Shown: piece after piece, positions 24,646-50,092 of the stretch | How the letters are laid out: the number at the start of each line of letters is the position of its first letter | Numbering within the stretch: position 1 is the stretch's first letter | DNA from: Elusimicrobiota bacterium | GTDB lineage: Bacteria; Elusimicrobiota; Elusimicrobia; UBA1565 | Assembly: GCA_041661185.1 (NCBI GenBank) | Contig: JBAZUV010000004.1 | Coordinates: 9,987-73,986 of the forward strand | Length of the DNA stretch: 64,000 nucleotides | Reading direction: 5' to 3' | Translations under genes and position numbers: made by a program | The notes under the pieces: generated by a model | Told to the model about the DNA's origin: nothing | Databases searched by the model: none | The model's input: the letters and a program-made list of their open reading frames with translations, nothing else

Positions 24646-24658
24646 ATGACGCGCCGCA

Positions 24659-27963: not shown

Positions 27964-27976
27964 TGCCCGGCCGGTT

Positions 27977-28028: not shown

Positions 28029-28042
28029 AGAGAAGAGAGGGT

Positions 28043-28423: not shown

Positions 28424-28424
28424 G

Positions 28425-33081: not shown

Positions 33082-33472
33082 CAGAGCTCCCTTCGCAGTG
33101 TAAAGTCTGCCATTTTTAATTCCCCTCGGTTATGTTCCAGATTTAGAAGGCGATAGAAAGCGACATCCGATGGGCAATAAAATACGCGCTGAGCTACGCA
33201 AAACATGCGCAACTCAGAAATACCGCGAAGCGTCGAGCTCTCCAATCCCTTCATCAGGGTGCCGAACACGGTGCCGTGGGACAAGGGATATGGGTCCGCG
33301 GGGCGTCTCGGAGCGCGCGCAGCCCTCTGCGCGCGCGAGAGCCGAGCGGACGCCGACGACAGAGGCGGACCGCGTACCCGCGAACCCATATCCCTTGGCG
33401 CACGGCGCACAAGCCACGACTTACCTTTCTGAGGGACCTGAGAATCTTTCTACGTGGGGTTTTACGACCGCG

Positions 33473-34684
33473 CTAGGATAGCGCGGAAGATTTCTTGGGC
33501 TCGAAGAGGATGAGGGTGCGCCTCAACTCCCCCTCCTCTTCGAGATGAACGGCGCGCACATGGCAGGCTTCCTGGCGGAACATCGTGTCCGTCTCCACGA
33601 CCTGGTTGGGCCTATCGAGCGCCACGCCGACCAATCGCAGCACGTCCTGCTGCTGACTGTCGATGACGTCCAGCAGGTGCAGGCGCGCATTCGGGTCGAC
33701 GGACGAGGTCACCGGGAAATTGGTGTAGAGCACGGTATTGTCCTCGTCGACTACGATGGCCCGGTGCGCCTTGGTCACGATGGTCGTCAGGATAGACTGC
33801 CACCAGCGCTGCTCGGCCACGCCCCGCTGCTTCTCGCGGACCATGGTATTGGCGCGGTCGGCCTTCACCTTCTGAAGGAACACGCCGAGCACGCCGGCCA
33901 AATCCCCGATCTCGTCCTTGCGCGGAGAGAACTTGATGTCCAGGTTCTTGAAAGAGATCGCCTCCACCGCGTCGCGCAGGTGCAGGAGCGGATTGACCAC
34001 GAAATGGTGCAGGAAAAAATAGAGCGGGATGCCCAGGAGGAAGAGCACGCCGATGGCGCCCAGCACATACTTGCGCATGGCCTGCGCGATCAAGTCCTTG
34101 ACCCCCTCGCGGGAGACCTGCATGTCCACGATGCCCATGACCTCGCCCCGCACGGCCAAGGGGATCGCGATCTCATAGAGCGGCTGGCCCGGCACGTTGC
34201 GGACCTTCGGGAGCTTGGAGAGATAGGCCTGCTCCACCGCGTCGGTGGGCAGCGGCAGGGCCTTGGTGAACTCATCGAAGGTCTTGCCGATGTAGCCCGG
34301 GTCCTTGAACCAGCGCACCTCGCCGTAGCGGTTGAAGTAGACCAAGGCCGCCACGCGCTCGTCTCGCGAGAGGCTTTCGCTGACGATCTGAAACTCCTCC
34401 ATCTTGATCGAGCTCTGGCGCTCGCTCAAGCCCCGGATGAGCTGATAGGCCTGCACCTTGACCAGGTCGATGGCCTCCTGCTTGAGCTTCTCGTCGAAAG
34501 TCCACTTGAAAAGGTTGTAGTAGAAGATCCCGCCCAGGAACATCACGTAGACGCCGATGGACAGATACCACAAGAACCACTTGGTGGAGAGCCTCACTGC
34601 GCTCCCCCGTAGGTCTGGTCGATCCTCTGCAGGCCCGCGGAACAGTCGGAGTTGGTGGGATCGAACTGAACGCAGAGCCTCCAC
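33473..34684 (-). CDS. Membrane sensor protein with extracytoplasmic domain, HAMP and C-terminal PAS-like domain (no output domain)
   Basis: TM1 is WFLWYLSIGVYVMFLGGIFYY and TM2 is YVLGAIGVLFLLGIPLYFFL; HAMP is LHLRDAVEAISFKNLDIKFSPRKDEIGDLAGVLGVFLQKV. The ORF start overlaps the TPR gene by 90 nt, so the true start is probably internal. Confidence 0.65.
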   Translation of the reverse strand: MEALRSVRSHQLRLFRGPAEDRPDLRGSAVRLSTKWFLWYLSIGVYVMFLGGIFYYNLFKWTFDEKLKQEAIDLVKVQAYQLIRGLSERQSSIKMEEFQIVSESLSRDERVAALVYFNRYGEVRWFKDPGYIGKTFDEFTKALPLPTDAVEQAYLSKLPKVRNVPGQPLYEIAIPLAVRGEVMGIVDMQVSREGVKDLIAQAMRKYVLGAIGVLFLLGIPLYFFLHHFVVNPLLHLRDAVEAISFKNLDIKFSPRKDEIGDLAGVLGVFLQKVKADRANTMVREKQRGVAEQRWWQSILTTIVTKAHRAIVVDEDNTVLYTNFPVTSSVDPNARLHLLDVIDSQQQDVLRLVGVALDRPNQVVETDTMFRQEACHVRAVHLEEEGELRRTLILFEPKKSSALS

Positions 34685-35946
34685 TCATCGCGCGCCTTGG
34701 CGTAGTCGTTGCGCTGATAGGCCACCAGGCCCTGCTGCCAGTGCCGGACCGCGTTCTTCTTGTTCTCGTCGGCCGCGGTCCCCGCGCCCTGGACCTGGAC
34801 ATCGCCGGGAGCGCTCGCCGCGGCGGCCTCGGCCTTGGCCTTATCCGCCTCCTCCTGCTTCTTGCGCTCCTCTTCATCCTTCTTGCGCTGCTCCTCCTCC
34901 TCGGCGTCCCGCTTGGCCTGCTCGGCCTTGCGGCGGCGGGCCTCCGACTCCCTCTGCATCTGCTCCTTGGCGCGAGCGATGAGCACGTTGGCGCGCCGAG
35001 GGTCATAGCCGTAGTCCACGGCCTTATTCCAAGAGTCCACGGCCTGCTTGTACTGCCGCTCCTTATATTGATTGCGGCCCTCGGCCACGTGCTGGCTGGC
35101 GATCTCCAGACGGATCTCGTTGATGAGCTTCTGGGCCTTGGCCTCGCCGGGCTCGATGCGCAGGACCTCATCGAGCAATTTAAGCGCGGAGGCGCTCTGC
35201 CCCTGCCCGTAGAGGGCGAGGGCCTGCTGAAGCTTGTCGTTGGCCTCCTGCCTGCGCAGCTCGGACTCGACGCGCGCGATAGTCCCCATCAGGCGCGGGT
35301 ATTTCGGATTGAGCACCAGCGCCGAATACCACTGATCGAGGGACTCGCGCAGACGGTGCAGCTGGTAGGCGCGCTGTCCGCGGCGGAAGTGCTCATCGGC
35401 CAGCTCGCCGCGCGCCTTCCTGAGCCAATAGCGGGCCTTGAGGTTCCCGGGAGAGAGCTTCGTGGCCTCCTCCCAGCGCTGGGTCGCCTCGACCAAGCGT
35501 CCCTGGCGATAGAGCGTCATTCCTTCCTCGAAGCGGTCCTCGACCAAGCGCCGCTCGGAGAGCCCGGGCTTGGGAGCCCCGTCGAGCTCCACGGAGGCGC
35601 GGTGCAGGATGGCCGCATCCTGAAAGCCGGGATCCATGGACAGGATCTTGGCGGTCAGCTCCCGGGAGCCGTCGAAGTCTCCCTCCTTGTAGAGGTCATA
35701 GGCGTTCTCATAGACCGTGCGCAGGAGCCTGTGCATCATGCGCGACTTCTCAAGCTGGATGGTGTAGAGGTATTTCTTCTTGGCCTCATGCGAGGAAAGC
35801 GTGCCCAGCTGAGTCTTGGAAAAATCCAGGAACAGGCCTTCGAGGGTCGGGGCCTTCTCCTCGTCCGGCTTGGCCGCGGCCGGCCGCGCGAAGACCGCCG
35901 GCCAAGCCAGCAGCATTGCGAGCCCCAACCGTTTCATCCAGGCCAT
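34594..35946 (-). CDS. Secreted TPR-repeat protein with Lys/Glu-rich coiled-coil tail (TadD-like candidate)
   Basis: Signal peptide MAWMKRLGLAMLLAWPAVFARPAAA, multiple TPR units (AIARYWLRKA..., ALALYGQGQSASALKLLDEVLRIEPGEA), and KKDEEERKKQEEADKAKAE. Confidence 0.75.
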   Translation of the reverse strand: MAWMKRLGLAMLLAWPAVFARPAAAKPDEEKAPTLEGLFLDFSKTQLGTLSSHEAKKKYLYTIQLEKSRMMHRLLRTVYENAYDLYKEGDFDGSRELTAKILSMDPGFQDAAILHRASVELDGAPKPGLSERRLVEDRFEEGMTLYRQGRLVEATQRWEEATKLSPGNLKARYWLRKARGELADEHFRRGQRAYQLHRLRESLDQWYSALVLNPKYPRLMGTIARVESELRRQEANDKLQQALALYGQGQSASALKLLDEVLRIEPGEAKAQKLINEIRLEIASQHVAEGRNQYKERQYKQAVDSWNKAVDYGYDPRRANVLIARAKEQMQRESEARRRKAEQAKRDAEEEEQRKKDEEERKKQEEADKAKAEAAAASAPGDVQVQGAGTAADENKKNAVRHWQQGLVAYQRNDYAKARDEWRLCVQFDPTNSDCSAGLQRIDQTYGGAQ

Positions 35947-36839
35947 TAGAAACCCATCCCTCCTTTCTTGAAGATGTTGAGGACCATCGGGCTGAGCATG
36001 AGGATGAAGACCGTGGGGAAGATGAAGAAGAATATGGGGATGAGCATCTTGGTGGAGGCCTGCGCGGCCGCCTTCTCCGCGTTATTGAGCCGCCGAAAGC
36101 GCATGTCCGAGGAGAAGTTCCGCAAGAGGTCCACCAGGCTCGTACCCAGTTCGTCGGACTGGATGATGAGCCCCACGAAGGAGCGCACGTCCTGCAGGCC
36201 CGTGCGCATGGCCAGCCTGCGCAGAGCGTCGCGGCGGGAATAGCCGAGTCCGACCTCGCTGATGGCGCGCTCGACCTCGCGCTCGAGCTCCGTCTTCTTG
36301 ATGGCGACCGAGATGATGCGGTCGAAAGCGGTCATGTAGTCCAGCCCGGACTCGATGGTGAGCGCGGCTAGGTCGACCAAAGAAGGGAAGTTGCGCAGGA
36401 TCTCTCTCTGGCGCTCCTGGATGCGGCCCTTGAAATAGAAATCCGGCATGTAGAAGGCCACGGGCGCGGCGAGGACGCCCAAGAACACGCTCTCGGACAT
36501 GAAGTAGACGAAGCCCGCCGCCACTACGCAGCAGAGCTCCTTGTAGTGGAGTATCTGCAAGGCATTGGGCTTCTCCGGCTTGCCCAAGAGCATGTGCAGG
36601 TTCTCCAGCCGCGCGCCCATCTTGGCCTGATGCACGAGGAAGAAGTCCAGGCGCTCCAGGAGCCCGCCCTGGGGATTGAGCTTCTCGAAAGGAGAGACGT
36701 CCCCCTCCCGCTTGCCCGCGATGCGCGCCAGCGAGTCCGCGTCCTCCTCGGGAGAGGAGAACATCCGCTGCACCAGGGTGAAGACGGCCATGGACCCCAG
36801 GAAGCCGATGATGAGCAGCAATATCTGCATCAGTGCCAT
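35946..36839 (-). CDS. tadC: Tad pilus inner-membrane platform protein TadC (T2SSF family)
   Basis: 297 aa with the T2SSF domain pattern (LDFFLVHQAKMGARLEN..., SLVDLAALTIESGLDYMTAFDRI) and N- and C-terminal TM helices. Confidence 0.8.
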   Translation of the reverse strand: MALMQILLLIIGFLGSMAVFTLVQRMFSSPEEDADSLARIAGKREGDVSPFEKLNPQGGLLERLDFFLVHQAKMGARLENLHMLLGKPEKPNALQILHYKELCCVVAAGFVYFMSESVFLGVLAAPVAFYMPDFYFKGRIQERQREILRNFPSLVDLAALTIESGLDYMTAFDRIISVAIKKTELEREVERAISEVGLGYSRRDALRRLAMRTGLQDVRSFVGLIIQSDELGTSLVDLLRNFSSDMRFRRLNNAEKAAAQASTKMLIPIFFFIFPTVFILMLSPMVLNIFKKGGMGF

Positions 36840-36840
36840 A

Positions 36841-38364
36841 TCAAACCTGGATGTCCGCGAGCTTGCGGACGACCCCCATGCCGATCGACATCCACACCGC
36901 GCAGAAGCCGATGGTGATGACGCCGATGACGCTGAAATAGTAGGCGTTCATGACCTCGGGCTGGAAGGCCCACATGAGCCCCATCATGGCCCAAGGCATG
37001 ATGCCCACGACCACGGCCTGGATGCGCTGCTGCGCGGTCAAGGACTGCGCCTTCTCCTCGAGCTTGCCCTCGTCGCGGATGTTCTCCACGATGCGGTCGA
37101 AGAGCTTGGTGAGGTTTCCTCCCACCGCGCGCTGGATGATGACGGCCTTGATGAGATAGGAGAGCAGGCGGCTGGCGATGCGCTCCTCCATGCCGAGCAG
37201 GGCCTTCTCGAAGGGCGTGCCGAGCTGGTAGTTCTTGAGCACGAGTCCGAACTCCTCGGAGATGGGAGGCACGAGATCGCGCTGGACGAGCTCGAAGCCC
37301 TGCACGATGTCCAAGCCCGACTTGAGCGCGTTGGACATGAGGATCATGGCGTCCATGAGCTGGGCCTCGACGCGCTTGCCTCGGCGCAGCCTCAGCGTAT
37401 TGAGTATCCATTCCGGCGCCTTGATCCCCAGATAGACGCCCGCGCAGGAGAAGATCATGAACCCGAAAATATTGAACGAAAGCACCCCGAGCATCAAGCC
37501 CACGATCATGGGCGTGAGGATGAGGTACTGGACCTTCATGGCCATGAACTGGCGGTTGAATTCATTGGCCCAATGCTTCGCCTTCTGCGCATGCTGCTCA
37601 AAGAGCCCGTAGACCGCGTCGGACTTGGCCTGTCCGTAGAGCCAGCCTGCCAGGAAAACGAACAGAGAGCCCAGCATCATGAGGAAGAGTATCCCGCCCT
37701 GGGAAGCCGGCGCGTCCTTGCCCGGAGGATTGAAGCCGCGCGGAGAACTGCGCAGGATCTGAAAGGCCTGGTTGGTGAGCGTGCCTACGGCCATCACGGA
37801 TTCCTGATAGCGCCGGGCGTCCTGGCTGGTCAGGGCGTCCAAGACGGATTCCATCTCGCGCAGGATGAGATCGTAGACGGCCAGGAGCGCGCGGCCGCGG
37901 CCGCCCAGGGAATCTCCCAGCTTCGCGCGGTAGAGACGGTCCAGCGACATCTGGAAGCGGATGCGGCTGTCCTCATAGTCCTTGACCAGCGCGCCCGGCG
38001 GGGTGAGCTGGCCGTTGAACTCCGGCGGGAAGGTCTTGCGCGTGTGCTCGAAGAACTCATAGAGCACCGAGACCGGCGCCTGCCAAAGCTGGGCCTCGTT
38101 GAGCACTCCCTCGTCGGGATCCTGCCAGACAGGCCGGCTGACCATGGCCTCCAGGATGCCGTCGATCCACGCCGGAACCTGGAGGTTCGGGTCCCGGTCC
38201 TTCTTGAAATAGTGGTAGATGTACTGGGCGCGCGCCTCGGCCCCGTTGTCGGAGTTGACCAGATAGTCGATCTGCTTCTTGCTGAACTGCGCGCACGCCG
38301 GCGCGGGCGCCAGCGCCGCCAAAAGCCCCGCCAGCACAAAGAAGCAGGCCGCCTGGGGATACAT
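36841..38364 (-). CDS. tadB: TadB-like T2SSF platform protein with ~330-aa N-terminal signal peptide + periplasmic extension
   Basis: The start is reassigned to the ATG at 38364 (MYPQAACFFVLAGLLAALAPAPACAQ), because the ORF upstream of it translates hairpin repeats. The C-terminal 180 aa carry T2SSF motifs (SNALKSGLDIVQGFELV..., QRAVGGNLTKLFDRIVENIRD). Confidence 0.75.
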   Translation of the reverse strand: MYPQAACFFVLAGLLAALAPAPACAQFSKKQIDYLVNSDNGAEARAQYIYHYFKKDRDPNLQVPAWIDGILEAMVSRPVWQDPDEGVLNEAQLWQAPVSVLYEFFEHTRKTFPPEFNGQLTPPGALVKDYEDSRIRFQMSLDRLYRAKLGDSLGGRGRALLAVYDLILREMESVLDALTSQDARRYQESVMAVGTLTNQAFQILRSSPRGFNPPGKDAPASQGGILFLMMLGSLFVFLAGWLYGQAKSDAVYGLFEQHAQKAKHWANEFNRQFMAMKVQYLILTPMIVGLMLGVLSFNIFGFMIFSCAGVYLGIKAPEWILNTLRLRRGKRVEAQLMDAMILMSNALKSGLDIVQGFELVQRDLVPPISEEFGLVLKNYQLGTPFEKALLGMEERIASRLLSYLIKAVIIQRAVGGNLTKLFDRIVENIRDEGKLEEKAQSLTAQQRIQAVVVGIMPWAMMGLMWAFQPEVMNAYYFSVIGVITIGFCAVWMSIGMGVVRKLADIQV

Positions 38365-38382
38365 CCTACGTTCCTTCTTTTT

Positions 38383-38490
38383 CGTCACCCCGGGCTTGAC
38401 CCGGGGGCCAGGAGCACGGCCAAACGACTTCCCCTGGATCCCGGCTTCCGCCGGGATGACGAATTTATGGGCTTTCGCCGGGATGACGAG
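38383..38490. repeat. GC-rich hairpin cluster 6
   Basis: gtcaccccgggcttgacccggggg, ctggatcccggcttccgccgggatgac, gggctttcgccgggatgac. Confidence 0.6.
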
Positions 38491-38515
38491 GAGCGCGAAG
38501 GAGACGGCCTCGCGC

Positions 38516-40897
38516 TCAAAGCGCATTGCGGGCCTCGTATTGCGCGTACTCCGGATGCTTCTTGAAGAGCTCGGGCGGGATGTTGAGCCCGGCCAGGCGG
38601 AACTCCTCGTAGAACTTCGGCGGCTTTCCGCAGCCGCTGAAGAAGCCCTGGGTCTTCCCGTCGGCATCGACGCCCGTGGCCACGTATCGGAACAAGTCGT
38701 TGGTGAGGATGGTGTTCTGGTCGCGGCCCGTGACCTCCGTGACCCAGGTGCAGCGGCGCTTGCCGTCCGGGAAGCGGGTGATCTGCACGACCAAGTGCAC
38801 GGCGGAAGCGATCATCTCGCGCAGGGCCCAGATAGGCAGGTCCGCGGAAGCCATCATGCACATGGCCTCCAAGCGCGTGAGCGCGTCGCGCGGGCTGTTG
38901 GCGTGGATGGTGGCCAAGGAGCCTTCATGGCCGGTGTTCATGGCCTGGAGCATGTCCAAGGCCTCGGAACCGCGGCACTCGCCGACGACGATGCGGTCCG
39001 GACGCATGCGCAGGCAGTTCTTGACCAGGTCGCGGATGGTGACCTCGCCCTTGCCCTCGATGTTGGGCGGGCGGCTCTCCAGCCGGATCCAGTGCTCCTG
39101 CAGAAGCTTGAGCTCCGCGGTGTCCTCGACGGTGATGATGCGCTCGTCCTCCGGGATGGAGGAGGAGAGCATGTTCAGGAAAGTGGTCTTTCCGGTGCCG
39201 GTTCCGCCGGAGATGATGATGCTCTTGCGCACGCGCACGCAGGCCTGCATGAAATCCAGGAGCTCCTCGTTGACGGAGCCGAAGCGGATAAGGTCCTTGC
39301 CGGAGAACGGGGTCTTGGAGAAGCGCCGGATGGTGAGCGTGGGACCGCTGACCGCCAGGGGCGGGATGATGGCGTTGACGCGAGAGCCGTCCTTCAAGCG
39401 AGCGTCGACCAGCGGCACCGACTCGTCGATGCGCCGTCCGATGGGCGCCACGATGCGCTTGATGACCTGGATGATCTGCTCGTCGTCGCGAAAGCGCAGC
39501 GAGGTCAAGACCAGCTTGCCGCCCCGTTCGATATAGACCTTGTCCGGGGCATTGACCATGATCTCGTTGACCGCGCTGTCGCGCATGAGCTCTTCGAGCG
39601 GGCCCAAACCCAGTATCTCGTCGAGGAGTTCGGCCACGAAGCGCTGGCGCAGGTCGCGAGAGAGCGGGAGGTTGGCCTCCTTCTGCAGAAGGCTCTCGAT
39701 GATGGCCGCGATCTTCTGGCGGACCTCCGCATTGCGCTCGTCGGAGTCGCTGATGCGGATGCGCTCGGTCTCCATGGCCGCCACCACGTGGCCGTGCATC
39801 TTCATCTTGAGCTCGTCCCAGAAGGCCGGCAGGTCCGTGGGCCGCGCGATAGGCTTGGCCTTGGCTTCGCCGCCCGGGCCGGCCATGGAAGAGGCCGTGG
39901 GTTTCCAGAGCAGGTTCGAGCCCTCGGAGAACTCATGCTCCTCCACCGCGGAGTGGCCCCAGGCCTTGGGACCCGAAGGGGTTTCCAGCATCTTGCCCAA
40001 GAGCGGGCGCAAGGCCTTGGCCCAGTCCGAATGCGGCTGCTCCACGACGAGGATGCGCCCCGTGTTCGCGAACTCGGGCAGAAGGTCTTCCCACGGCATG
40101 TAGGAAAGGACCCGCTTGTTCATGTTCGCGAAGAAGCGGTCGACTTCCTTGGGCGCCAGGGCGCCGGGCAGGTTCGCCTCGTTGAGCACGACCTCGAAGC
40201 GCTCCAAGGGGAAGTGCAGGGCCTTGAACTCCTGGAAGAGCGCGTAGGTGGACTCGAAGTGCCCGCGCTGAGGCAGGCAGGTCCAGAACACCAGGTCCGC
40301 CAGGTCGAAGGAGAAGACCTGCATCGGGAAATAGGGGTCCACGTCCAGGAAGAGGTCGTAGGACTGCGAAAGGCTCTCCAGGATGGGCACGATCACGTGC
40401 GGGGAGGTCTGCAGGACCTCCGAGCGCTTGCTTCCCAAGGGGAGCACGCCCACTCCCCACTGGGAGAGCGGGATGCGGCCCTTGAGCAGCTTGCTGAGCA
40501 CGGCCACGTCCTTGCCCACGAACTGCGTCAGGCTGGCCAAGGTCGGAGGCTGGAGCCCAAGCTGAAAGGAAAGGTCCGAGCGGCAAAGAGGGTCGAGCTG
40601 GACGATGAGCACGTTGCGGCTCTGCGTCCCGGCCCAAGCCAGGGCGAGATTGAGCGCGATGGAGGACTTCCCGACGCCTTCCTTGGGACCGGAGAACACC
40701 ACCACTCGGCCCGAGGACCGCGGCGTGGAGCCGGTCAGAGTCTTCGGCGCCGGAACCGTCGGAAACGGCGTGCCCGCAGAGGCCGGAGGAGCGGGGAAAG
40801 ACACGAGCTCCCCAGCCGGCGCCGGCGGCGTGGGCCTTTTCCCGGGGCCCGTGGGGAGCCCCGGAGTGCCGATGAACGGCGGAAGGTCGCTGGCCAT
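38516..40897 (-). CDS. Fused CpaE/TadZ-like (MinD/ParA-fold) domain + CpaF/TadA secretion ATPase
   Basis: The N-terminal ~330 aa carry a deviant Walker A (VVFSGPKEGVGKSSIALNLA) typical of CpaE. The C-terminal ~450 aa are CpaF (GGTGTGKTT, VTVEDTAELKL, VGECRGSEALDML, GHEGSLATIHAN). Confidence 0.85.
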   Translation of the reverse strand: MASDLPPFIGTPGLPTGPGKRPTPPAPAGELVSFPAPPASAGTPFPTVPAPKTLTGSTPRSSGRVVVFSGPKEGVGKSSIALNLALAWAGTQSRNVLIVQLDPLCRSDLSFQLGLQPPTLASLTQFVGKDVAVLSKLLKGRIPLSQWGVGVLPLGSKRSEVLQTSPHVIVPILESLSQSYDLFLDVDPYFPMQVFSFDLADLVFWTCLPQRGHFESTYALFQEFKALHFPLERFEVVLNEANLPGALAPKEVDRFFANMNKRVLSYMPWEDLLPEFANTGRILVVEQPHSDWAKALRPLLGKMLETPSGPKAWGHSAVEEHEFSEGSNLLWKPTASSMAGPGGEAKAKPIARPTDLPAFWDELKMKMHGHVVAAMETERIRISDSDERNAEVRQKIAAIIESLLQKEANLPLSRDLRQRFVAELLDEILGLGPLEELMRDSAVNEIMVNAPDKVYIERGGKLVLTSLRFRDDEQIIQVIKRIVAPIGRRIDESVPLVDARLKDGSRVNAIIPPLAVSGPTLTIRRFSKTPFSGKDLIRFGSVNEELLDFMQACVRVRKSIIISGGTGTGKTTFLNMLSSSIPEDERIITVEDTAELKLLQEHWIRLESRPPNIEGKGEVTIRDLVKNCLRMRPDRIVVGECRGSEALDMLQAMNTGHEGSLATIHANSPRDALTRLEAMCMMASADLPIWALREMIASAVHLVVQITRFPDGKRRCTWVTEVTGRDQNTILTNDLFRYVATGVDADGKTQGFFSGCGKPPKFYEEFRLAGLNIPPELFKKHPEYAQYEARNAL

Positions 40898-40912: not shown

Positions 40913-41719
40913 TTATTTCACGATCTCGAACGTCACGAAAAGGAACAACGATTTCTGCTCTTCCAAGACGCTCGTGGTCGTGAAAAGCAGCCCGAGGATC
41001 GGGATGCGGCCCAAGAACGGGACGCGGGTCTTGGTCACGTTCTTGTTGCTGGACTTGAGTCCGCCGATGACGATGGTCTCACCGCTCTTGATCTCGACCT
41101 CGGTCTGGATCTGCCGCGTGACCATGGAAGGCACCGAAGTGTTCCCGACCGTCACGGGCTTCGAGTAGTCCGGGTTCGAGACCTCCAGCTGAAGCTGCGC
41201 GTCGATATAGTCCTTCTTGTTCGGATTGACCACGGGCAGGATGTTCAAGATCACGCCGAATTTCTTGTACTCCACGCCCACTCCCTGGTTATTGGCGACC
41301 GGATAAGGCTGCTCGCCGCCCACCACGAAGTTTGCCTGGGTGGCGGACTTGGTGATGACCTTGGGATTCGAGAGCAGCTGGGCCTTGCCCTCGGTCTCCA
41401 GAAGCTTGAGCGCGGTCTGCAGCTGGGTCAAGCGCTCGAAGTCGCCGATCCTGATGATGCCCGGGATAGGCGCCTTCTCCGCGAAGTTGATGCCGGTCTG
41501 GAAAGGCCCCCAGCTGAATCCCACGTCCTTGGAGATCGAGCCGCTGATCTCCACGACGTCGGCGCTGACCGCGATCATCACATTCTGCGCGTCGTCCTCG
41601 GCGGCCGCCTCCTCCTGCTGAGCCCTCAGGACTCCCGGAGCGAGAGCGAGCAATCCGGCAAGCAACACCCCTGTGAGGGCGCTTGGCCTTCCCGTTGAAC
41701 TTCGCTGTTGTCGTTCCAT
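40913..41719 (-). CDS. Minimal secretin (CpaC/RcpA-like; secretin C-domain only)
   Basis: 268 aa with a signal peptide and the secretin signature (LLSNPKVITKSATQANFVVGGEQPY, GVILNILPVV, GETIVIGGL, TRVPFLGRIPILGLLF); no N0-N3 domains. Confidence 0.8.
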   Translation of the reverse strand: MERQQRSSTGRPSALTGVLLAGLLALAPGVLRAQQEEAAAEDDAQNVMIAVSADVVEISGSISKDVGFSWGPFQTGINFAEKAPIPGIIRIGDFERLTQLQTALKLLETEGKAQLLSNPKVITKSATQANFVVGGEQPYPVANNQGVGVEYKKFGVILNILPVVNPNKKDYIDAQLQLEVSNPDYSKPVTVGNTSVPSMVTRQIQTEVEIKSGETIVIGGLKSSNKNVTKTRVPFLGRIPILGLLFTTTSVLEEQKSLFLFVTFEIVK

Positions 41720-41762: not shown

Positions 41763-42518
41763 CTATCTAAATAGTCTCCTGAAGCTCGCCATCTCCAAGG
41801 GGTGCATCTCAACATCCCCCAGGCCGCGCAGGATCACCGTGATGTCTCCCTGCTTCATGGCCAGAGAGAGATACTGCGCCTCCACCGCGTTGAGCGCCAC
41901 GCTCAGGATGCCCTTTTCCGCGAAAGCCGCCGACTGTTCGTCCTTCTTCTCTTTGTCCGCGAAATCCTTGGCCGCCATCCCCTGTCCGAGATTGCTGCCC
42001 ACGCCCAGCACGAGCGTGTTCTGCAGGATGGTGGCCGTGACCTTCTCCTTGCGGTTGTCGGCCATGAGCGCGTCGAAGGTCACCATCACGTCCACGCGGT
42101 CGCCGGGCTTGATGAGCTTGAGGAGCTCGTTCTCCACCGGGATGACGGCCCCGCGGTAGCCGGAGGGGATCTTCACGCTCAGTCCCGTGGTGGGCGAGAG
42201 CGGCGTGACGATCGAATGCGAGAGCTGGTTGCCCTTGGGAATGCGCACGCGCGTGACCAAGTTCGTGATCAGCTCGATGTCCGAGGGCGTCTTGACCTCG
42301 AAGGAATCCTGCGCCATGTATTTGCGCGGGATCTGCATGCCCTGCACGAGGTCCTTCTTAAGGAGAGTGCGCTCGGGCAAGTCCACGCGGGCCACGAGCA
42401 CCGTGGTGTTCTCGTGCGACTTGGCCAGCTGCTTCTCACGGCTGGTCAGGACCAGCAGGTAGAGAGCCGCGGCCGCCACGGCCAGGACCAGAGGGATCAG
42501 GACGCTCTTTTTTTCCAT
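41763..42518 (-). CDS. cpaB: Flp pilus assembly protein CpaB/RcpC (SAF-domain)
   Basis: 251 aa with an N-terminal TM anchor and CpaB-like beta-rich domains (VLVARVDLPERTLLKKDLV..., GDRVDVMVT). Confidence 0.8.
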   Translation of the reverse strand: MEKKSVLIPLVLAVAAAALYLLVLTSREKQLAKSHENTTVLVARVDLPERTLLKKDLVQGMQIPRKYMAQDSFEVKTPSDIELITNLVTRVRIPKGNQLSHSIVTPLSPTTGLSVKIPSGYRGAVIPVENELLKLIKPGDRVDVMVTFDALMADNRKEKVTATILQNTLVLGVGSNLGQGMAAKDFADKEKKDEQSAAFAEKGILSVALNAVEAQYLSLAMKQGDITVILRGLGDVEMHPLEMASFRRLFR

Positions 42519-43050: not shown

Positions 43051-43100
43051 CCCCCTCCTCCTGCCGCCGGCGCTTCGTCCGGCGGACTGACGCCTTGCTG

Positions 43101-43292
43101 TTAGTTCGGCGATCCGACCGTGCTGGCGGCTCCGGAGATCATCTGCATGATCTGGTTGAAGATGCCGCTGATCTGCGGCTTGAACATCTTGCCGATCACG
43201 AGGATGACGCCCACGATGACGGCCAGCATCATCAGATACTCCACCGTGTTCTGGCCGCGCTTGCTGCGAAGGAACTCCTTCCATTTCTTCAT
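43101..43292 (-). CDS. flp: Flp-family type IVb pilin (flp-1)
   Basis: 63 aa; MKKWKEFLRSKRG|QNTVEYLMMLAVIVGVILVIG has a prepilin-peptidase G|Q site and a TVEY hydrophobic core. An SD-like AAAGGGGAG lies upstream. Confidence 0.8.
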   Translation of the reverse strand: MKKWKEFLRSKRGQNTVEYLMMLAVIVGVILVIGKMFKPQISGIFNQIMQMISGAASTVGSPN

Positions 43293-43368
43293 TCCATTCT
43301 CCCCTTTACGGATATTCTTCCACCCTTAAACAAACACCCCTTTCCGTTCTTAGACGACCCGGCATCCC

Positions 43369-43391
43369 GGGGAACCCTGCCAGGGTTCCCC
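43369..43391 (-). other. Stem-loop between the two flp genes (possible attenuator/processing hairpin)
   Basis: ggggaaccctg-cc-agggttcccc forms a 10-bp stem ~25 nt after the flp-2 stop; there is no U-tract. Confidence 0.3.
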
Positions 43392-43413
43392 CTACCTGAC
43401 GCGCAGGGGCCTC

Positions 43414-43569
43414 CTAAAAGTACGCAGTCAGAATCGCGATGCCGGCATTCGTGAACAGCCGCTTCGTCTGGCCCTGCAAGATCCGGTAGAGCGTGGTGAA
43501 GATGAACAAAAGCATCACGGTCATGAGCAGGTATTCCACCAGCGCCTGTCCGCGTCGTCGACGATGCAT
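43414..43569 (-). CDS. flp: Second Flp-family pilin (flp-2), 51 aa, below the ORF-track cutoff
   Basis: Hand translation gives MHRRRRG|QALVEYLLMTVMLLFIFTTLYRILQGQTKRLFTNAGIAILTAYF*, from the ATG at 43569 to the TAG at 43416-43414. It has the Flp G|Q-x-x-VEY motif. Confidence 0.7.
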   Translation of the reverse strand: MHRRRRGQALVEYLLMTVMLLFIFTTLYRILQGQTKRLFTNAGIAILTAYF

Positions 43570-43587
43570 CGTTCATCTCCAAGCCTA

Positions 43588-44568
43588 TCAGAATTTCACC
43601 TTGAGAGACAGCATGTCCGCCGTCCCCAAAGCGCCCATCGAAACCAGCGAATAATCGAAAGCGATGCCGTAGCCGAAGGCCTGCGCGGTATAGAGTCCGA
43701 TGCCGAAGCTCCAGCGCGGGGACCCGATCAAGGGATACATGAAGCTGCGGTCTTTCTCCATGACCTGCCCCATGTCGTCGGCGTTATAGAAGCCCGCGCG
43801 CAATTGGACCTGCCCGATCTGCAGAAGGTCTTCCGGCAAGGTGAATTCCGCGCCGGCTCCCAGCCGCGCGGAGTTGTCGCTGGCCTTGCTGATCTCTCCG
43901 GTCAGGGTCAAGAGCTCCAGTATCCGGCCCGAGGCGCCGACGCGGGTGACGGAGGCGACCTTCGCGGTCCCGGCGCCGATGTTCTGGACGGAGGCGCCCA
44001 AGGTCCAGCCCTGGGCCGGACGCAGGAGCAAGCCCGCGTCGCCCACCACGGAGCTGCGCGCGGAGCCCGCGTTGTCCTCGTGCACGCCCTTGGCGCTGAC
44101 GCCCAGGAAGAGCCGCTCATACCAGAAGGAGCGCGCGAGGCTCAAGGTCGCGAAGCCGTTCTGCACGCGGATATCCGAGGAATCCATGGGACGCCCCTGG
44201 TCGTCGCGCGCATCGAACCCGTCCACGGACATGTAGGCGACGTTGGCTCCCGCCACGGTGCGGCCGAAAGGATGGGCATAGCCCATGTAGAAGGGAGAAT
44301 CGATCTCCTGGACATACCGGTAATAGGAGTAGACGAACTCCTTCTGCTGGGCCAAGGCCAAGCCCGCGGGATTCCAAGTCAGGGCGTCGGCGCCCTCGGC
44401 CAAGGACACATAGGCCCGGCCCAAGGCCATGGCGCGCGCGCTGCCCAGGCCCAGCTTCATGAAATTGGCTCCGCCCGTGCCCGCGGAAGAGTCGATAGCG
44501 GCCGCAGGAGCAGCGGCCGCGAAAGCCAGAACGCATGCCATCGCCGCGCCGCTCATCTTCGTTCTCAT
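43588..44568 (-). CDS. Outer-membrane beta-barrel protein (PorV/PorP-SprF/TraF-like N-terminal motif)
   Basis: 326 aa with signal peptide MRTKMSGAAMACVLAFAAAAPAAA, the motif GLGSARAMALGRAYVSLAEGADALTWNPAGLA, alternating beta-strands and a C-terminal Phe. Its start overlaps the upstream gene's stop (ATGA). Confidence 0.65.
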   Translation of the reverse strand: MRTKMSGAAMACVLAFAAAAPAAAIDSSAGTGGANFMKLGLGSARAMALGRAYVSLAEGADALTWNPAGLALAQQKEFVYSYYRYVQEIDSPFYMGYAHPFGRTVAGANVAYMSVDGFDARDDQGRPMDSSDIRVQNGFATLSLARSFWYERLFLGVSAKGVHEDNAGSARSSVVGDAGLLLRPAQGWTLGASVQNIGAGTAKVASVTRVGASGRILELLTLTGEISKASDNSARLGAGAEFTLPEDLLQIGQVQLRAGFYNADDMGQVMEKDRSFMYPLIGSPRWSFGIGLYTAQAFGYGIAFDYSLVSMGALGTADMLSLKVKF

Positions 44569-47500
44569 GGGATGAGCACCTTGCGCACGACCTGCAGGGG
44601 CGTCTTTTCTCCGCGGTTGGGCTCCTCACGGATGAGCACGAAGTACACGCCGGGCGCCACGGTCCGGCCGGCGCTGTTGGTCTTCGTCCAGACATAATCC
44701 ACATAAGTGTCCGAGGCCTGCACGCCGAAGTCCCGGCTGAAGACGACCTCGCCGGAGAGCGTGTAGATCTTCATCGTGACCTTGGACTGGACCGGCACGT
44801 AGATGTGCGTGCTCATGCTCGTTCCGCGCACGGGGTTCGGATAAAGGATCGTATTGTTGGCGAAGTCCGCCTCGGGATCGACCGAACCGCTGCGCACCAC
44901 CGGGACCTCCGCGATGATGAGGTCCTCGGCCAGGGACGCTCCCAAGCCCACCCCGCCGGAGATGCTGTCGATGGCCCGGATATCGGTGGAGGCCACGATC
45001 TTGAAGAGATAGTTGCCGTCCGGCACGATGGTCAGCCGTTCGTCGGTCCCGTCCCAGATATCCGTGATCTCCGTGCGCGCGGGCCGCACGCCAATGATGC
45101 GCTTGACCAAGCTCTGCGACTCCGGAGGCGTGGCATTGCCGTTGCGGTCGAAATTCGTCCCGGGTTTATAGATTTTGATGCCCACCTTCATGGTCTCGGA
45201 GACCTGATAGGCGATGAGCGCGGTGCCCGCGTCCGGCCGCAAGGGGCTGACCGCCACATCATAGACCCGCAAGGGGTTGGCTGAGATGGTCATCTGCGCC
45301 GTGGAACCCGAGGAGAGCACGGAAGCCAAGTCCTCGGCGATGGCCTGCACGGTATAGAAGCCCGGGCTCACGAAGTTCCCGGAATCATCGCGCGCATCCC
45401 AGAACTCGCGGTTGACGATGCCGGCGTCGCGCACCTGCCCCAAGACCAGGGTCCTGACCACCTGCGGCGAGATGGACGTGCTCAGTATCTGGATGGTGAC
45501 CGAGGACTGCCGGGTCAGGGAGTATTCCACCTGATAAGGAGGCAGCGAAATGGTCTGGCTGGAATTGAAGAGCGTGGGGACCGTGGGAGTGACGTTGAAG
45601 ATCGGGAACACGATGGAGCCGCGCGCGACGGTCACATTGCCCACGATCTGGTCCGTGGCGAAGTAGCGGGGCGTGGTCGTGGACTGCGCCGCCAGCACGA
45701 ACACATAGGTCCCGTCCGGCACAAAGAGGCCGTTGTGGTCGCGTCCGTCCCAGAACTCCGTGATCTTCATGCGTCCGGGCCGCATGCCCTTGATGACGAC
45801 CAAGGGAGTGGTCGGAGAACCGTTGCTGGTGACCTGCGCGCAGGCGCCGGGCTCGATGCTGCGGCACGGCGGCCATGTCGCCGTCGAGCCCGTGATCACG
45901 GTCCCGGGAGGATAGAGGCTCCAAGCCGCCTGCATGGGCTGGGAGAGCTGGTAGCTGATGGTGACCACGTCCGTGGACCCGGTCAAAAGCGGGGTCACGA
46001 CCACGTCCGTGATGCGAAAGAGATTGACCGAGAAGAGCGCGGTCACCGTCGAGACCTTGGACGGCACGAAAGGATCCGCGGCGGTCAGCTGCGCCAGATA
46101 GGTGCCGGAAGTCACCCAGAGCCCGCGGTCGTCGATGGGGATGTTCCAGCGGTCGCGGTTGGCGAAGTTCGCGGGCCTCGATTCATTGGCCACGAGGGTC
46201 TTGACCAGATTGATCCCGGTCTCGTCGTAGATCTTGAGATTGACGACGGCGTCGCGCGAAAGCGTGTAGCCGAAAGTAAAGGGGTCCAGGCCGGCTACGG
46301 AGGGCGAGGAGCCGATGACCGTGGAGGAAGGCCCCACCTGGCTGATGGTGACCATGCCGCGGCTGACCGTGATGAAGCCGCTTCGCGCGTTCGTAGACCA
46401 GATGCGCTGATCAGCAGGGTTCCCATTGAAGGAATAGCCGTTCTGTGAAGGCAGGGAGGCATACAGGACGAAGACATAGTCCCCATCCGGCAGGATATTG
46501 CCTGCGGTATCGCGGCCGTCCCAGATGCTGAGCACGCTCTTGCGAGAATCCTTCTGCTCCTCAATATGCCGCAACAGCGTCGTGGAAGGACCGAAGTTCT
46601 TAGGCACAACCCCCGCAAGATCTCCGAGAGAATTGACGCTATTGAGCCCCTGAGTGAACTCCGTGCCTGGAGCATAGATATCAATATAAACCGTGGCCGG
46701 TTCCGTGATCTGGTAGCTCAGCACCGCCAGGGAGGTGGAAAGGTCCATGAGCGGCTGGACCCGGATATCCGTGATCTGCAAGGTATCTAAGGAAATCTGC
46801 CGGGTGGCTGCCGCTCCCAGATCGAAGCCGAACTGATCTCGCACCATGGGCTGCAAGGTCGCCAAATACACGCCCGGAGGAGCCAAGTCCCCGTTATCCC
46901 AACGCCCGTTCCAAGAGTCCCCATTCTGCAGGCTCCCGTTCGGAACGCCTTCGCCCACGCGAGGAATCCCCGGAACTACGGTACGGATGACGGGGAAACT
47001 CAAGGCCGGATTCGCGGTATTATGGATAGTGAGATACATGGTGGCGTCTTTGGAGAGCCGGTAGGTCAGGTTATAGGGCTCTGCGGCCACGCCCGTAAGC
47101 TCGCCCACGACCGTGGGCGTGGAACGAACCACATGGACATTCGCCACGTCCATGGTGATAGGCGCTTGGTCTACGAATATTCCATTTGCTCCGGTATCGT
47201 CGCAATTCCCCGCGCTATCCAAAGCTTTGGTCGCGCCTGAAGGATACGCCCGAGTCTGCGTGATATTGATGTTCCCGCTGGCCCCGGTTTGGTTCGTGGC
47301 AACGGTCCCGCGGAACCCGAACTGCCCGTTCGTTTTTCCAAACTCACCCAAAATGTTATAGGCCCCGTCCCAAAGCACGCAGGTCGTGGGTACTGCCGCG
47401 TCGGCGGCGGGGTTGTCCGAGTTCGTATCCCCTGGAATGATGCCGGGGTTATCAACAAAAAAAGTACGGATCGGCGGCGCGGATTGCGGATCAAGAGGAT

Positions 47501-47963
47501 TGGTGCCTTGAGCGAATTTGAATATCTCGAAATTGATGTAATCGAGGGCGATGTCCGTGTCAGCAGTGGTCGTGCTTTGGTTGTTGTTCCAGCCCACCTT
47601 GAGGCACAAGAATATCTCCTTGTTGCAGACGTTCCAGACATCGTCTGATTCAGGAAAATTGGGACTGCTGGAGCACGTCGCAGACACCGCCTGATCGAAC
47701 TCGATGCGCGGATCATTGGAGATGTCGCCGTGGTTGGGACAGCGCGCCGTAGGAGTGCAGGTGAATCTCCCGGTCGCGGTAGTAAATGTGCAGACATCTG
47801 GACGAGCAACGAATATCTTCTTGATGAAGATCTGCTGCGCCATTGCCGGACCGGCTGCCGCGAAGAAGAACGCCGCGGCCAGCGCGGCCAAGCGCGCGCC
47901 GACGGAGAAACAACTCCCTCGCCTAAAAGACAGGAGCGCTCCCGGCTCTGCAGGGCTCATCAT
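44565..47963 (-). CDS. ~1130-aa secreted multi-repeat protein: multiple FlgD-Ig-like repeats and a T9SS-type (Por_Secre_tail-like) C-terminal domain
   Basis: Signal peptide starts at the MM codons at 47963 (MMSPAEPGALLSFRRGSCFSVGARLAALAAAFFFAAAGPAMA). The repeat motifs are WDGRDTAGNILPDGDYVFVL, WDGRDHNGLFVPDGTYVFVL, WDARDDSGNFVSPGFYTV and WDGTDERLTIVPDGNYLFKI. The C-terminus reads LYPNPVRGTSMSTHIY...MKIYTLSGEVV...PGVYFVLIREE...KVLIP. Confidence 0.75.
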   Translation of the reverse strand: MMSPAEPGALLSFRRGSCFSVGARLAALAAAFFFAAAGPAMAQQIFIKKIFVARPDVCTFTTATGRFTCTPTARCPNHGDISNDPRIEFDQAVSATCSSSPNFPESDDVWNVCNKEIFLCLKVGWNNNQSTTTADTDIALDYINFEIFKFAQGTNPLDPQSAPPIRTFFVDNPGIIPGDTNSDNPAADAAVPTTCVLWDGAYNILGEFGKTNGQFGFRGTVATNQTGASGNINITQTRAYPSGATKALDSAGNCDDTGANGIFVDQAPITMDVANVHVVRSTPTVVGELTGVAAEPYNLTYRLSKDATMYLTIHNTANPALSFPVIRTVVPGIPRVGEGVPNGSLQNGDSWNGRWDNGDLAPPGVYLATLQPMVRDQFGFDLGAAATRQISLDTLQITDIRVQPLMDLSTSLAVLSYQITEPATVYIDIYAPGTEFTQGLNSVNSLGDLAGVVPKNFGPSTTLLRHIEEQKDSRKSVLSIWDGRDTAGNILPDGDYVFVLYASLPSQNGYSFNGNPADQRIWSTNARSGFITVSRGMVTISQVGPSSTVIGSSPSVAGLDPFTFGYTLSRDAVVNLKIYDETGINLVKTLVANESRPANFANRDRWNIPIDDRGLWVTSGTYLAQLTAADPFVPSKVSTVTALFSVNLFRITDVVVTPLLTGSTDVVTISYQLSQPMQAAWSLYPPGTVITGSTATWPPCRSIEPGACAQVTSNGSPTTPLVVIKGMRPGRMKITEFWDGRDHNGLFVPDGTYVFVLAAQSTTTPRYFATDQIVGNVTVARGSIVFPIFNVTPTVPTLFNSSQTISLPPYQVEYSLTRQSSVTIQILSTSISPQVVRTLVLGQVRDAGIVNREFWDARDDSGNFVSPGFYTVQAIAEDLASVLSSGSTAQMTISANPLRVYDVAVSPLRPDAGTALIAYQVSETMKVGIKIYKPGTNFDRNGNATPPESQSLVKRIIGVRPARTEITDIWDGTDERLTIVPDGNYLFKIVASTDIRAIDSISGGVGLGASLAEDLIIAEVPVVRSGSVDPEADFANNTILYPNPVRGTSMSTHIYVPVQSKVTMKIYTLSGEVVFSRDFGVQASDTYVDYVWTKTNSAGRTVAPGVYFVLIREEPNRGEKTPLQVVRKVLIP

Positions 47964-48176
47964 GACACAGGTTCTACGCACACAAGAGAGTTTAATATCA
48001 GCCCTTTTCTGATTTGTTGATTCGCTGTTAAAAAGATGTTGCGCCGGCCCGTTCCTGAGGCCTGTCTGAATAATGGTATCAGCGCTCATAGGCTCGGGCA
48101 TGGGCCCTTCTGCTCACCCCTCCCCCGCCATAGGACCCACCAGAACCTAGGACCAAAGACTATCTGGTGCCTATCT

Positions 48177-48246
48177 GGTGCCAGGGGTCATTTTGTTCGC
48201 GTAACTTTCCGCGGAAAGTTACGCGAACAAAATGACCCCTGGCACC
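48177..48246. repeat. 70-bp perfect palindromic element sharing GGTGCCAGG / CCTGGCACC termini with the 80-bp elements
   Basis: ggtgccaggggtcattttgttcgcgtaactttccgcgg|aaagttacgcgaacaaaatgacccctggcacc is preceded by the tandem duplication ctatctggtgc-ctatctggtgc. Confidence 0.75.
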
Positions 48247-48247
48247 A

Positions 48248-50092
48248 TCAGCGAAGGAGGAAGCGTTTTAGGCTGGAGGACTGCTCGCCGGGGGCGGGGG
48301 CGGCCAAGGCCCAGAGTTCGAGATTCGAGCGCCCGTTCTCAACGGGAGCGAACACGAAGGAAAGGCTCTGCAAAGCCGAGGTGAAGGGGGCGTTCTTGGA
48401 CTGGACGAAGATCTTGCCTTCCAGGCGGAGCACGAGCAATTCGCGCGTCTTGGCGTCGTAGACCCAGAGCTCGCCGTTGTGCCAAGCCATGGCCCCGGGC
48501 ACAAGCTCGCGGTCCGAGTGATAATCCTCGGTCGCGGAATCCGCGCCTTCGCCCAAGTGCCGATAGAAGACGCGCGTGACCGCGTCATAGGACCAGAGAT
48601 TCTTGCCGTCGTGCGCGAGCGCCGTGGGCGCGGGCCCGGGCGTGGGCCAGACGTAGCGGATATCCGAGGGTTTGCCGAGCGCATGGCGCACGATGCGGCT
48701 CTGCGCGGAGTCGAGAGAATACATGCCGTCTCCTGAGAGCGCGAGCGCGGACGGATGATAGCTCCCCTCGGGCCGGACCTTGAAGCGTTCGATCACGCGC
48801 GAAGGATCGGCCGGATCGAGCAGCAGGAACTCCCCGTTCCAGTCGCAGACCCACAAGAGCGAGCCGTCATAAGCCATGGCCGTGGGCGTCGTGGAGGACA
48901 AAATCATCGACGAGATCGGCTTGACCGAAAGCAGGCGGCGCCATCGCATGACCGGGAACCAGGCTCCTGCCAGGACTCCTGCGATCAAGACTCCGGCGAT
49001 GATCGCGCGCCAAGGCCTGGCCGGCGCGCGCACGACTTCCACGGCCGGCGCAAGCGCCGCAGACGCCGCCGCAGGAGCAGACGCGGGCATGAAACGGCTG
49101 GAGGCATCGCGCATCCAGCTCGCGATGCGCTCTCCGGCCTCGGAGGACTTGCGCAAAGCCTCGGCCATCTGCGTGGCGTAGCGCGTCTCCCGGGACTCGA
49201 CATCCTGGAGCTGCGTGTGCCAGGTCTCGCGCTCCTTGCGAAGGCGCTCCTCCCAAGAGGTGAACTCCTGGCGCTGGGCCTCCCACGTGGAGCGCTCGCG
49301 ATCCCAGAGCTCCTGCCACTGCTTGCGCTCCTCCTGCCAGACATTCTCCATGCGCTGGAGACGATCCTCGGCCTCGCCCAGCCGCTTGACGGCTTCGGCG
49401 CGGGCCGTCTCGGCGGCCTCTCGGTCATGGCGCTCCTGCAGGAGTTCGGACAAGGTCTTCTCGACTACGCCCTTGGCCTGCTTGAGGTCCGCAGCGTCCT
49501 TGCGCGACTGCTCCTGCTGTCCGCCGCAGGAACGCTCCGCGCGCTCGGTTGACGAACGCAGTTCCTGCAGATCCAAAAGGTATTGCTGTTCCCGCTCGTT
49601 GAACTGCCGCTCCAACTCGCGAAAGCGCCCGGCCTCGGCGGCCAAACGCGCATGCGCCTGCTCGGCCATGGCGCGCAGGGTGCTGCGCTCCTCGTCGAAG
49701 CGCGCCTCCTGGGCCTTGAAGGCCTTCTGCGCCTGTTCGAGCTGCACGGAAAGATCGAAGGTCTTCTGATAGACGACGGAGTCGTCGCGCTGGGCCCTGC
49801 GCCGCAAGGCCGTGAGCTCCTGCTCGGATGAAGCGAGCCTCTCGCGCAGCTCGCGCAAAGCCAGCTCCTTGGCGTCGACGAGCCGGCGGAAATCATCGAG
49901 GCGGCCGCGATGCCGATTCTTCATCCACTCGAAGGTCTCCATGGAGACCTCGCTGGTGATGGAGGGTTCCTCAAAGGACGCGGGCATGCCCAAGGACGGC
50001 GCGCTCATGCCAGGGGCCTCCGGCATCCCGGAGGTCACGCGCGACCAGAGCCCGTCGAGCTCTTTCTGGAGGTCGTCCGAATTCATAGGCAT
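48248..50092 (-). CDS. Bitopic membrane protein: cytoplasmic coiled-coil (~330 aa), one TM, periplasmic beta-propeller-like repeats
   Basis: Long heptad-rich segments (LRELRERLASSEQELTALRRRAQ...), TM AIIAGVLIAGVLAGAWFPV, and C-terminal repeats with W/Y-x-YD (LLWVCDWNGEFLLLD, LWSYDAVTRVFYRH, LWVYDAKTRELLVL). Confidence 0.6.
   Translation of the reverse strand: MPMNSDDLQKELDGLWSRVTSGMPEAPGMSAPSLGMPASFEEPSITSEVSMETFEWMKNRHRGRLDDFRRLVDAKELALRELRERLASSEQELTALRRRAQRDDSVVYQKTFDLSVQLEQAQKAFKAQEARFDEERSTLRAMAEQAHARLAAEAGRFRELERQFNEREQQYLLDLQELRSSTERAERSCGGQQEQSRKDAADLKQAKGVVEKTLSELLQERHDREAAETARAEAVKRLGEAEDRLQRMENVWQEERKQWQELWDRERSTWEAQRQEFTSWEERLRKERETWHTQLQDVESRETRYATQMAEALRKSSEAGERIASWMRDASSRFMPASAPAAASAALAPAVEVVRAPARPWRAIIAGVLIAGVLAGAWFPVMRWRRLLSVKPISSMILSSTTPTAMAYDGSLLWVCDWNGEFLLLDPADPSRVIERFKVRPEGSYHPSALALSGDGMYSLDSAQSRIVRHALGKPSDIRYVWPTPGPAPTALAHDGKNLWSYDAVTRVFYRHLGEGADSATEDYHSDRELVPGAMAWHNGELWVYDAKTRELLVLRLEGKIFVQSKNAPFTSALQSLSFVFAPVENGRSNLELWALAAPAPGEQSSSLKRFLLR

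Follow-up and report, generated by a model that had tools for sequence, protein, structure and literature searches.

Does the DNA between the PorV/PorQ-family gene and the 63-aa flp gene of this Elusimicrobiota locus encode a second Flp-type prepilin, and what part would such a protein play beside its neighbour? The initial annotation of the 64-kb stretch analysed here (the window) had answered the first question in the affirmative, on the basis of a 51-aa ORF translated by hand from the minus strand, and had suggested that a stem-loop between the two genes might regulate them differentially. In what follows, the 51-aa product is referred to as pilin A and its 63-aa neighbour as pilin B, and the coordinates of the locus are collected in Table 1. 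For comparison, six related loci, designated L003, L006, L007/8, L009, L010 and L011, were available, giving seven distinct loci together with the window.

Table 1. Features of the tad locus and its surroundings, in the order in which they are read on the minus strand
Feature	Position (nt)	Strand	Evidence
~610-aa protein, no Pfam match, first in operon order	within 43588-50092	-	
1178-aa FlgD_ig/CHU_C protein, second in operon order	within 43588-50092	-	
PorV/PorQ-family outer-membrane barrel	43588..44568	-	NF033709, 80.9 bits (cutoff 90)
Spurious 97-aa ORF over pilin A in another frame, spanning the A-B spacer	43289..43582	-	GC3, codon score
Shine-Dalgarno-like GGAG, 7 nt 5′ of the pilin A ATG	43577..43580	-	sequence
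Pilin A gene, predicted 51-aa Flp/Tad-type prepilin	43414..43569	-	stop codon TAG
Predicted pilin A leader, MHRRRRG	43549-43569	-	sequence
Predicted mature pilin A, 44 aa from Gln8	43417-43548	-	sequence
GC-rich stem-loop (10 bp) within the A-B spacer of 121 nt	43369..43391	-	folding; GGGGAACCCT/AGGGTTCCCC, loop GGC
Pilin B gene, 63-aa Flp1_like prepilin, leader MKKWKEFLRSKRG, mature start QNTVEY	43101..43292	-	PF16982 29.7 bits, PF04964 13.7 bits
GC-rich hairpin after pilin B, 7+2 bp, in the spacer before tadE	43064..43085	-	folding
TadE-like pseudopilin, 164 aa	42556..43050	-	PF07811 42.4 bits; called gene
RcpC/CpaB	41763-42518	-	
Secretin	40913-41719	-	
TadZ-TadA fusion	38516-40897	-	
TadB/TadC-like T2SSF platform proteins	36841-38526 and 35946-36839	-	
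TPR TadD-like protein	34594-35946	-	

The 51-codon frame is a conserved gene

The 51-aa ORF was found on the minus strand as claimed, and its translation read MHRRRRGQALVEYLLMTVMLLFIFTTLYRILQGQTKRLFTNAGIAILTAYF. The product had the layout of a prepilin, MHRRRRG/QALVEYLLMTVMLLFIFTTLY, in which the motif G/QALVEY is followed by approximately 20 hydrophobic residues. Since an in-frame TGA is located two codons 5′ of the ATG, the leader is fixed at 7 residues and cannot be longer. The counterpart of the Shine-Dalgarno-like site in L003 was GGAGG. In the window, which has a G+C content of 64%, the GC3 of the genes neighbouring pilin A ranged from 0.78 to 0.90; that of the pilin A frame was 0.79, and under a codon-usage score derived from those genes, it alone of the six frames had a positive value.

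A search of a 5.8-billion-protein database yielded 26 homologues of pilin A, with E-values from 1e-8 to 1e-18. Alignment of the 27 members revealed a variable leader and then sharp conservation from RGQALVEY to a C-terminal AYY, directly after which the stop codon falls in 25 of them, and the mature length of 44 residues was kept in six of the seven loci. Comparison of the gene across six loci of different lineages gave 206, 133 and 328 nucleotide substitutions at codon positions 1, 2 and 3, respectively, many of them synonymous; from this excess at the third position it follows that the frame is under purifying selection. The region from 43414 to 43569 on the minus strand is a genuine, conserved gene. 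That the GC-rich DNA should carry this frame by chance alone and the spacer be non-coding, as its length of only 51 codons and the lack of any curated HMM scoring above threshold might suggest, has next to no probability, being refuted by the codon statistics, the homologues (most of which keep both length and stop position), the family alignment and the substitution pattern, to which the conserved synteny of the locus can be added.

The initial annotation had judged the overlapping 97-aa ORF to be in the wrong frame and likely spurious, and the same conclusion was reached here. The GC3 of this ORF was 0.48 overall and 0.36 over the stretch shared with pilin A, its codon score was negative, no Pfam match was obtained, and the A-B spacer that it covers is shortened or absent in the relatives. 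Together with three antisense ORFs on the plus strand (43095-43454, 43120-43329 and 43493-43654), it was rejected as a shadow of the coding frames.

The gene had been described as unannotated, which holds for an ORF track with a 60-aa cutoff and not for the public records of this genome, as standard gene callers have already called an identical protein in four archives, namely NCBI (WCU88_01200, a "hypothetical protein" of an Elusimicrobiota MAG), ENA, JGI and Logan. The ORF is uncalled in two related NCBI MAGs, namely those of L009 (GCA_016196755.1) and L010 (GCA_016195065.1), in which the homologues are located on the plus strand at about 9830-9983 and at 9821-9988, respectively, within a gap of approximately 260-280 nt that has no gene call. 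It was also noticed that GCA_016195065.1 is labelled "Proteobacteria bacterium", though its locus is Elusimicrobiota-like.

Kinship of pilin A with Flp/Tad pilins and with pilin B

The initial annotation had named the Flp HMM PF04964 as the test by which the peptide should stand or fall, and by that model alone it falls: PF04964 (Flp_Fap) matched neither pilin A nor any of the 26 homologues, even at E-values of up to 1. The same 27 proteins had no match to PF16982 (Flp1_like; cutoff 33.5 bits), and an NCBIfam scan of pilin A returned nothing. Among the models, PF04021 (archaeal class III signal peptide) alone matched pilin A, weakly and below its cutoff (12.3 bits, E 0.17; cutoff 23.7 bits), and weak matches to it were present in 11 of the 27 family members, the best having an E-value of 0.03.

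We ascribe the PF04964 miss to the reach of the model and not to non-membership, because the family profile built on pilin A finds only Tad pilins in the PDB and reaches proteins that do carry PF04964. Searched against 177,635 distinct PDB sequences, the profile matched only 8u1k (E 0.0029) and 8u2b (E 0.036), both of them Tad pilins of Caulobacter; the E-values are modest, both alignments are ungapped over residues 4-42 of 45, and a C-terminal motif, F-T-x-A-G-x-A, is common to the profile and the two pilins. Searched against 1.84 billion cluster representatives, it gave 129 matches. A Pfam scan of 119 short proteins, comprising the window protein and 118 of these 129 matches, assigned 13 to PF04964 (best E 2.7e-17), 18 to Class_IIIsignal, six to DUF4244, three to TadE and two to Flp1_like, so that the majority of those outside PF04964 belonged to families of related pilins. 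In the 27-member as well as the 119-member set, the Gly, Glu and Tyr of the motif are invariant or nearly so.

The structure predicted by AF2 from the 119-sequence alignment was one continuous helix (residues 4-50, pLDDT 92.4). A Foldseek search of the PDB with this model gave no matches, a single 50-residue helix not being searchable. According to the cryo-EM study of the Caulobacter pilin, the mature subunit of a Tad pilin, 40-60 residues long, is one uninterrupted helix that lacks a globular domain (PMC10710030); pilin A has 44 mature residues and is predicted to form such a helix. The leader-ending Gly, the XXXXEY motif with Glu at +5 and the hydrophobic stretch were all present, and homology to established Flp pilins was detectable at the sequence level. 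Based on its motif, the profile matches in the PDB, the PF04964 proteins among the other profile matches, the kinship with pilin B and the tad context, pilin A is, as far as sequence can tell, the Flp/Tad-type prepilin that the initial annotation took it for, of a divergent subfamily lying beyond the current Pfam and NCBIfam models.

Several properties place pilin A among its bacterial counterparts. As in PilA of Caulobacter crescentus (8U1K, 8U2B) and Flp-1 of Aggregatibacter actinomycetemcomitans, the leader ends in Gly and is followed by the G/XXXXEY motif with Glu at +5; as in bacterial Flp/Tad pilins generally, the gene heads a tad operon that comprises TadE, RcpC, secretin, TadZ/TadA and TadB/C. 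Unlike these pilins, pilin A is not scored by PF04964 and has Gln at +1, and its leader of 7 residues is shorter than those usual in bacterial Flp pilins. Its small, all-helical mature form without a globular domain is again that of the bacterial pilins (PMC10710030).

Features of an archaeal type were also present in pilin A, which has the class III/Epd motif, with a 7-residue leader, G7, Q8 (+1) and E12 (+5). The EppA-dependent (Epd) pilins of Methanococcus maripaludis carry a class III signal peptide of 5-13 residues, the last of which is Gly, followed by Gln at +1 and Glu at +5, and are very small, with 54-63 aa in the mature form; a minor pilin of similar size is essential for piliation beside the major one (PMC3875500). 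Pilin A resembles them in its short basic leader, Gln+1 and Glu+5, and the weak PF04021 matches fit this resemblance. It differs in that its PF04021 score is below the cutoff and no EppA homologue was identified, and the locus differs from the Epd system in being that of a bacterial diderm, with secretin, RcpC and TadZ. Tad systems are thought to be derived from an Epd-like system (PMC6668835), and the leader, Gln+1 and Glu+5 of pilin A fit this proposed origin.

The two pilins were 29% identical (BLASTP E 4e-7; hhalign probability 94.8%) and had R-G/Q-x-x-V-E-Y in common, in agreement with the earlier view of two tandem genes that are divergent paralogues. Pilin B carries PF16982 in precomputed tables, though its score here was below the cutoff of that model (29.7 versus 33.5 bits). 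It had 157 homologues, which is roughly six times the 27 detected for pilin A, and some sources name these homologues "Flp pilus assembly pilin Flp". Mature pilin B is nearly invariant across Elusimicrobiota, and its gene has a GC3 of 0.91 and a codon score of 0.92, versus 0.25 for pilin A. A search of the PDB with a pilin B profile gave no pilin match. In all seven distinct loci (the window and the six related ones), A lies directly upstream of B; in L011, a single A gene is accompanied by two copies of B. A six-frame scan of the window for prepilin ORFs with the pattern G-x4-E revealed none besides A and B.

Tad loci that begin with divergent flp genes in tandem have long been known, and paired pilin genes are common; examples are flp-1/flp-2 in A. 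actinomycetemcomitans and flp1-3 in Haemophilus ducreyi. Multiple pilA/flp paralogues also occur in Sinorhizobium meliloti (PMC10934763). The locus described here is like these in that the 5′ end of its tad operon holds a pair of neighbouring flp-type genes of divergent sequence. It is unlike them in that 1) purifying selection is clear for both A and B, which are strictly conserved together throughout a clade of phylum level, and 2) the two belong to different sequence families, B to PF16982 and A to one for which no HMM exists.

Operon context and hairpins

On the minus strand, the genes follow one another in the order ~610-aa protein, FlgD_ig/CHU_C protein, PorV/PorQ barrel, pilin A, pilin B, TadE, RcpC, secretin, TadZ-TadA, two T2SSF proteins and TPR protein. 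They make up a full tad locus, and the same gene order was found in all six related loci. The PorV/PorQ gene ends 18 nt before the ATG of pilin A, and the two are therefore probably co-transcribed. A scan for sigma-70 promoters between 42800 and 44800 gave no sites, the sigma-70 model being uninformative for this phylum.

The same three genes precede every related Tad operon, namely those for a ~610-aa protein without Pfam match, a ~1150-aa FlgD_ig/CHU_C protein (sometimes with Por_Secre_tail) and a PorV/PorQ barrel; in L003, L006, L007, L009, L010 and L011 they occupy positions of about 3400-9990. Thus, parts resembling those of type IX sorting are fused to the Tad pilus operon in Elusimicrobiota. 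This arrangement, in which PorV-like and FlgD_ig/CHU_C genes precede the operon, sets the locus apart from known Flp/Tad loci, as do the fusion of TadZ to TadA and the fact that no tadV was detected in the locus or near it.

The fusion protein is 793 aa long, with a TadZ-like CbiA/ParA domain at residues 67-279 and a TadA T2SSE ATPase domain at residues 430-709. A protein of similar size (755-870 aa) is present in the six related loci, five of which had a T2SSE match, and no Pfam match was obtained for that of L006. The secretin is unusually short, with 268 aa in the window and 251-274 aa in five related loci, and is uncalled in L011. The window ORFs that were scanned and the genes within 10 kb on either side in the seven loci contained no Peptidase_A24 domain (PF01478; TadV/CpaA). 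A peptidase encoded elsewhere would be compatible with known Tad systems, in which tadV can lie apart from the tad locus (PMC6668835).

Other parts of the window were also inspected. Downstream of the tad genes, at 30006-33081 on the minus strand, are two large ORFs without Pfam match, one of 547 aa that is hydrophobic (GRAVY 0.32) and one of 498 aa; the gene calls in 31650-34590 are uncertain. Farther away, a 2405-aa ORF (4451-11668, minus strand) has an unusual architecture, combining a ClpB-like double AAA+ region (residues ~700-1270) with a C-terminal Peptidase_M48, and a 2093-aa ORF (15804-22085, minus strand) contains two subtilase (Peptidase_S8) stretches and HEAT repeats; the protein encoded next, of 407 aa, has a single, faint match, to DUF6588. 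These large protease genes are flanked, at 261-4349 and 23860-29231 on the minus strand, by dense two-component signalling genes, including several response-regulator-like ORFs (one confirmed by Pfam) and two HAMP histidine kinases; a Ser/Thr kinase gene is located at 14498-15844 on the plus strand. Scanning of the whole 64-kb window revealed no Rfam family at the gathering threshold and no tRNA gene.

The 10-bp stem-loop between the pilin genes exists exactly at 43369-43391, as the initial annotation had it, and occurs once in the window, so that a repeated element was rejected. The stem is followed by GGGAUGCCGGG, with no U-tract, and a terminator scan reported neither this hairpin nor the one after pilin B. 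In the six related loci, the A-B spacers are 47, 65, 34, 17, 12 (L010) and -4 nt (L011, in which the genes overlap by 4 nt and there is no spacer); the hairpin is absent from all six, and their folded spacers are at most weakly structured. Of the features of an intrinsic terminator or attenuator, the element thus has the stem, and it lacks both the U-tract and a conserved position. Being unconserved and without U-tract, it cannot account in general for differential expression, and the suggestion that it regulates the two genes found no support.

A strong, GC-rich hairpin conserved in position and not in sequence was instead observed after pilin B in six of the seven loci, L011 being the one without. 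It has 9 bp in the window and from 9 to about 26 bp in L003 (at 10428-10454), L006, L007/8, L009 and L010, with no U-tract in any case. With this hairpin conserved in position and none general between A and B, the general layout seems to place the two pilin genes side by side, followed by a hairpin and only then by the genes for assembly. A "termination cascade" with graded transcription was reportedly described for the tad locus of A. actinomycetemcomitans by Kram et al. in 2008; transcription might be graded in a similar way here, by the hairpins next to the pilin genes.

Proposed roles of the two pilins

Our preferred reading, held with somewhat better than even confidence, is that pilin A is a genuine Tad prepilin co-transcribed with pilin B, that B is the major subunit and A its less abundant partner, and that the hairpin after B grades the mRNA. 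For cleavage, assembly, subunit assignment and hairpin action, we infer the following sequence of events. Pilin A would insert into the inner membrane via its hydrophobic helix and be cut between Gly7 and Gln8 by an aspartyl prepilin peptidase of the TadV/CpaA type, presumably encoded outside the window; the same peptidase would cut pilin B after Gly13, exposing Gln+1 and Glu+5 in both. The 44-residue, all-helical pilin A would then be passed to the TadZ-TadA/TadB-TadC machine encoded just downstream and polymerised, and the filament would leave through the RcpC-secretin conduit. Presumably co-transcribed with its paralogue, pilin A may serve as a minor or priming subunit or as a second structural subunit, the major subunit of the filament would be pilin B, and the hairpin after B would probably set pilin mRNA above assembly-gene mRNA. 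Pilin B is favoured as the major subunit because it is near-invariant, has the higher GC3 and codon score, has about six times as many homologues, is duplicated in L011 and is directly followed by a hairpin in six of the seven loci. We think that this assignment is the likelier one, on the conservation and codon usage of what are very short genes. Weighing against the preferred reading as a whole are the missing matches of pilin A and its homologues to PF04964 and PF16982, the modest PDB E-values and the failure to detect Peptidase_A24 in the scanned window ORFs or within 10 kb on either side in the seven loci.

The reverse assignment, with pilin A as the major subunit and pilin B as an accessory or minor one, is unlikely, though it has some points in its favour: A comes first in the pair, its 44 mature residues are close to the 45 of Caulobacter PilA, and the profile of A, unlike that of B, picks out the solved major Tad pilins of Caulobacter, the C-terminal F-T-x-A-G being part of the match. 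Against it stand the far stronger conservation and higher codon adaptation of B, the 157 homologues of B versus 27 of A, and the fact that B, not A, was duplicated in L011.

It is less likely still that A and B are obligate partners co-polymerising at fixed stoichiometry in a heteropolymeric Tad filament. The strict adjacency in seven of seven loci would be expected of such partners, spacers as short as 12 nt (L010) or overlapping by 4 nt (L011) are compatible with translational coupling, and the RGQxxVEYL(L/M)M N-terminus, which forms the filament core, is common to both. However, 121 nt and a hairpin stand between the two genes in the window, A and B occur in L011 in a ratio of one gene to two, and we know of no precedent for a two-pilin filament among solved Tad pili. 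The pili solved so far are homopolymers (PMC10710030). A broader version, in which A and B co-evolve as obligate partners and form a two-subunit filament or one with A as a dedicated primer or tip, the machine perhaps being linked in function to the FlgD_ig/CHU_C protein of ~1150 aa and the PorV-like barrel, appears about equally improbable. If such a link did exist, the locus would represent a hybrid pilus/surface-protein sorting system with Gly/Gln processing in the archaeal style.

The least credible of the roles considered would place pilin A outside the fibre, as a pilin-like small inner-membrane protein acting as an assembly or priming factor or as a regulator of the peptidase or platform. 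The fairly hydrophobic C-terminal half, ending in AGIAILTAYF, and the unusually short leader could be read in this way, but no family member departs from the cleavage motif with Glu+5, and the alignment with real Tad pilins takes in the entire mature part, so we give this role very little weight.

Pilin A is, then, an ordinary member of a tandem pilin pair, belonging to a divergent Flp subfamily for which there is no HMM. The strict pairing of A and B and the predicted, archaeal-like Gly/Gln cleavage sites add a little to the evidence for the evolutionary link that has been proposed from Epd to Tad systems, and they open no new question. The main value of the finding lies in annotation, as it concerns a conserved Flp-type subfamily without Pfam or NCBIfam model that comprises at least 27 clusters at 90% identity, with 129 profile matches among 50%-identity representatives. 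Pilin A is "hypothetical" in some Elusimicrobiota MAGs and uncalled in others, and the Tad systems of this phylum are therefore described one pilin short; a family HMM for pilin A would close this gap.
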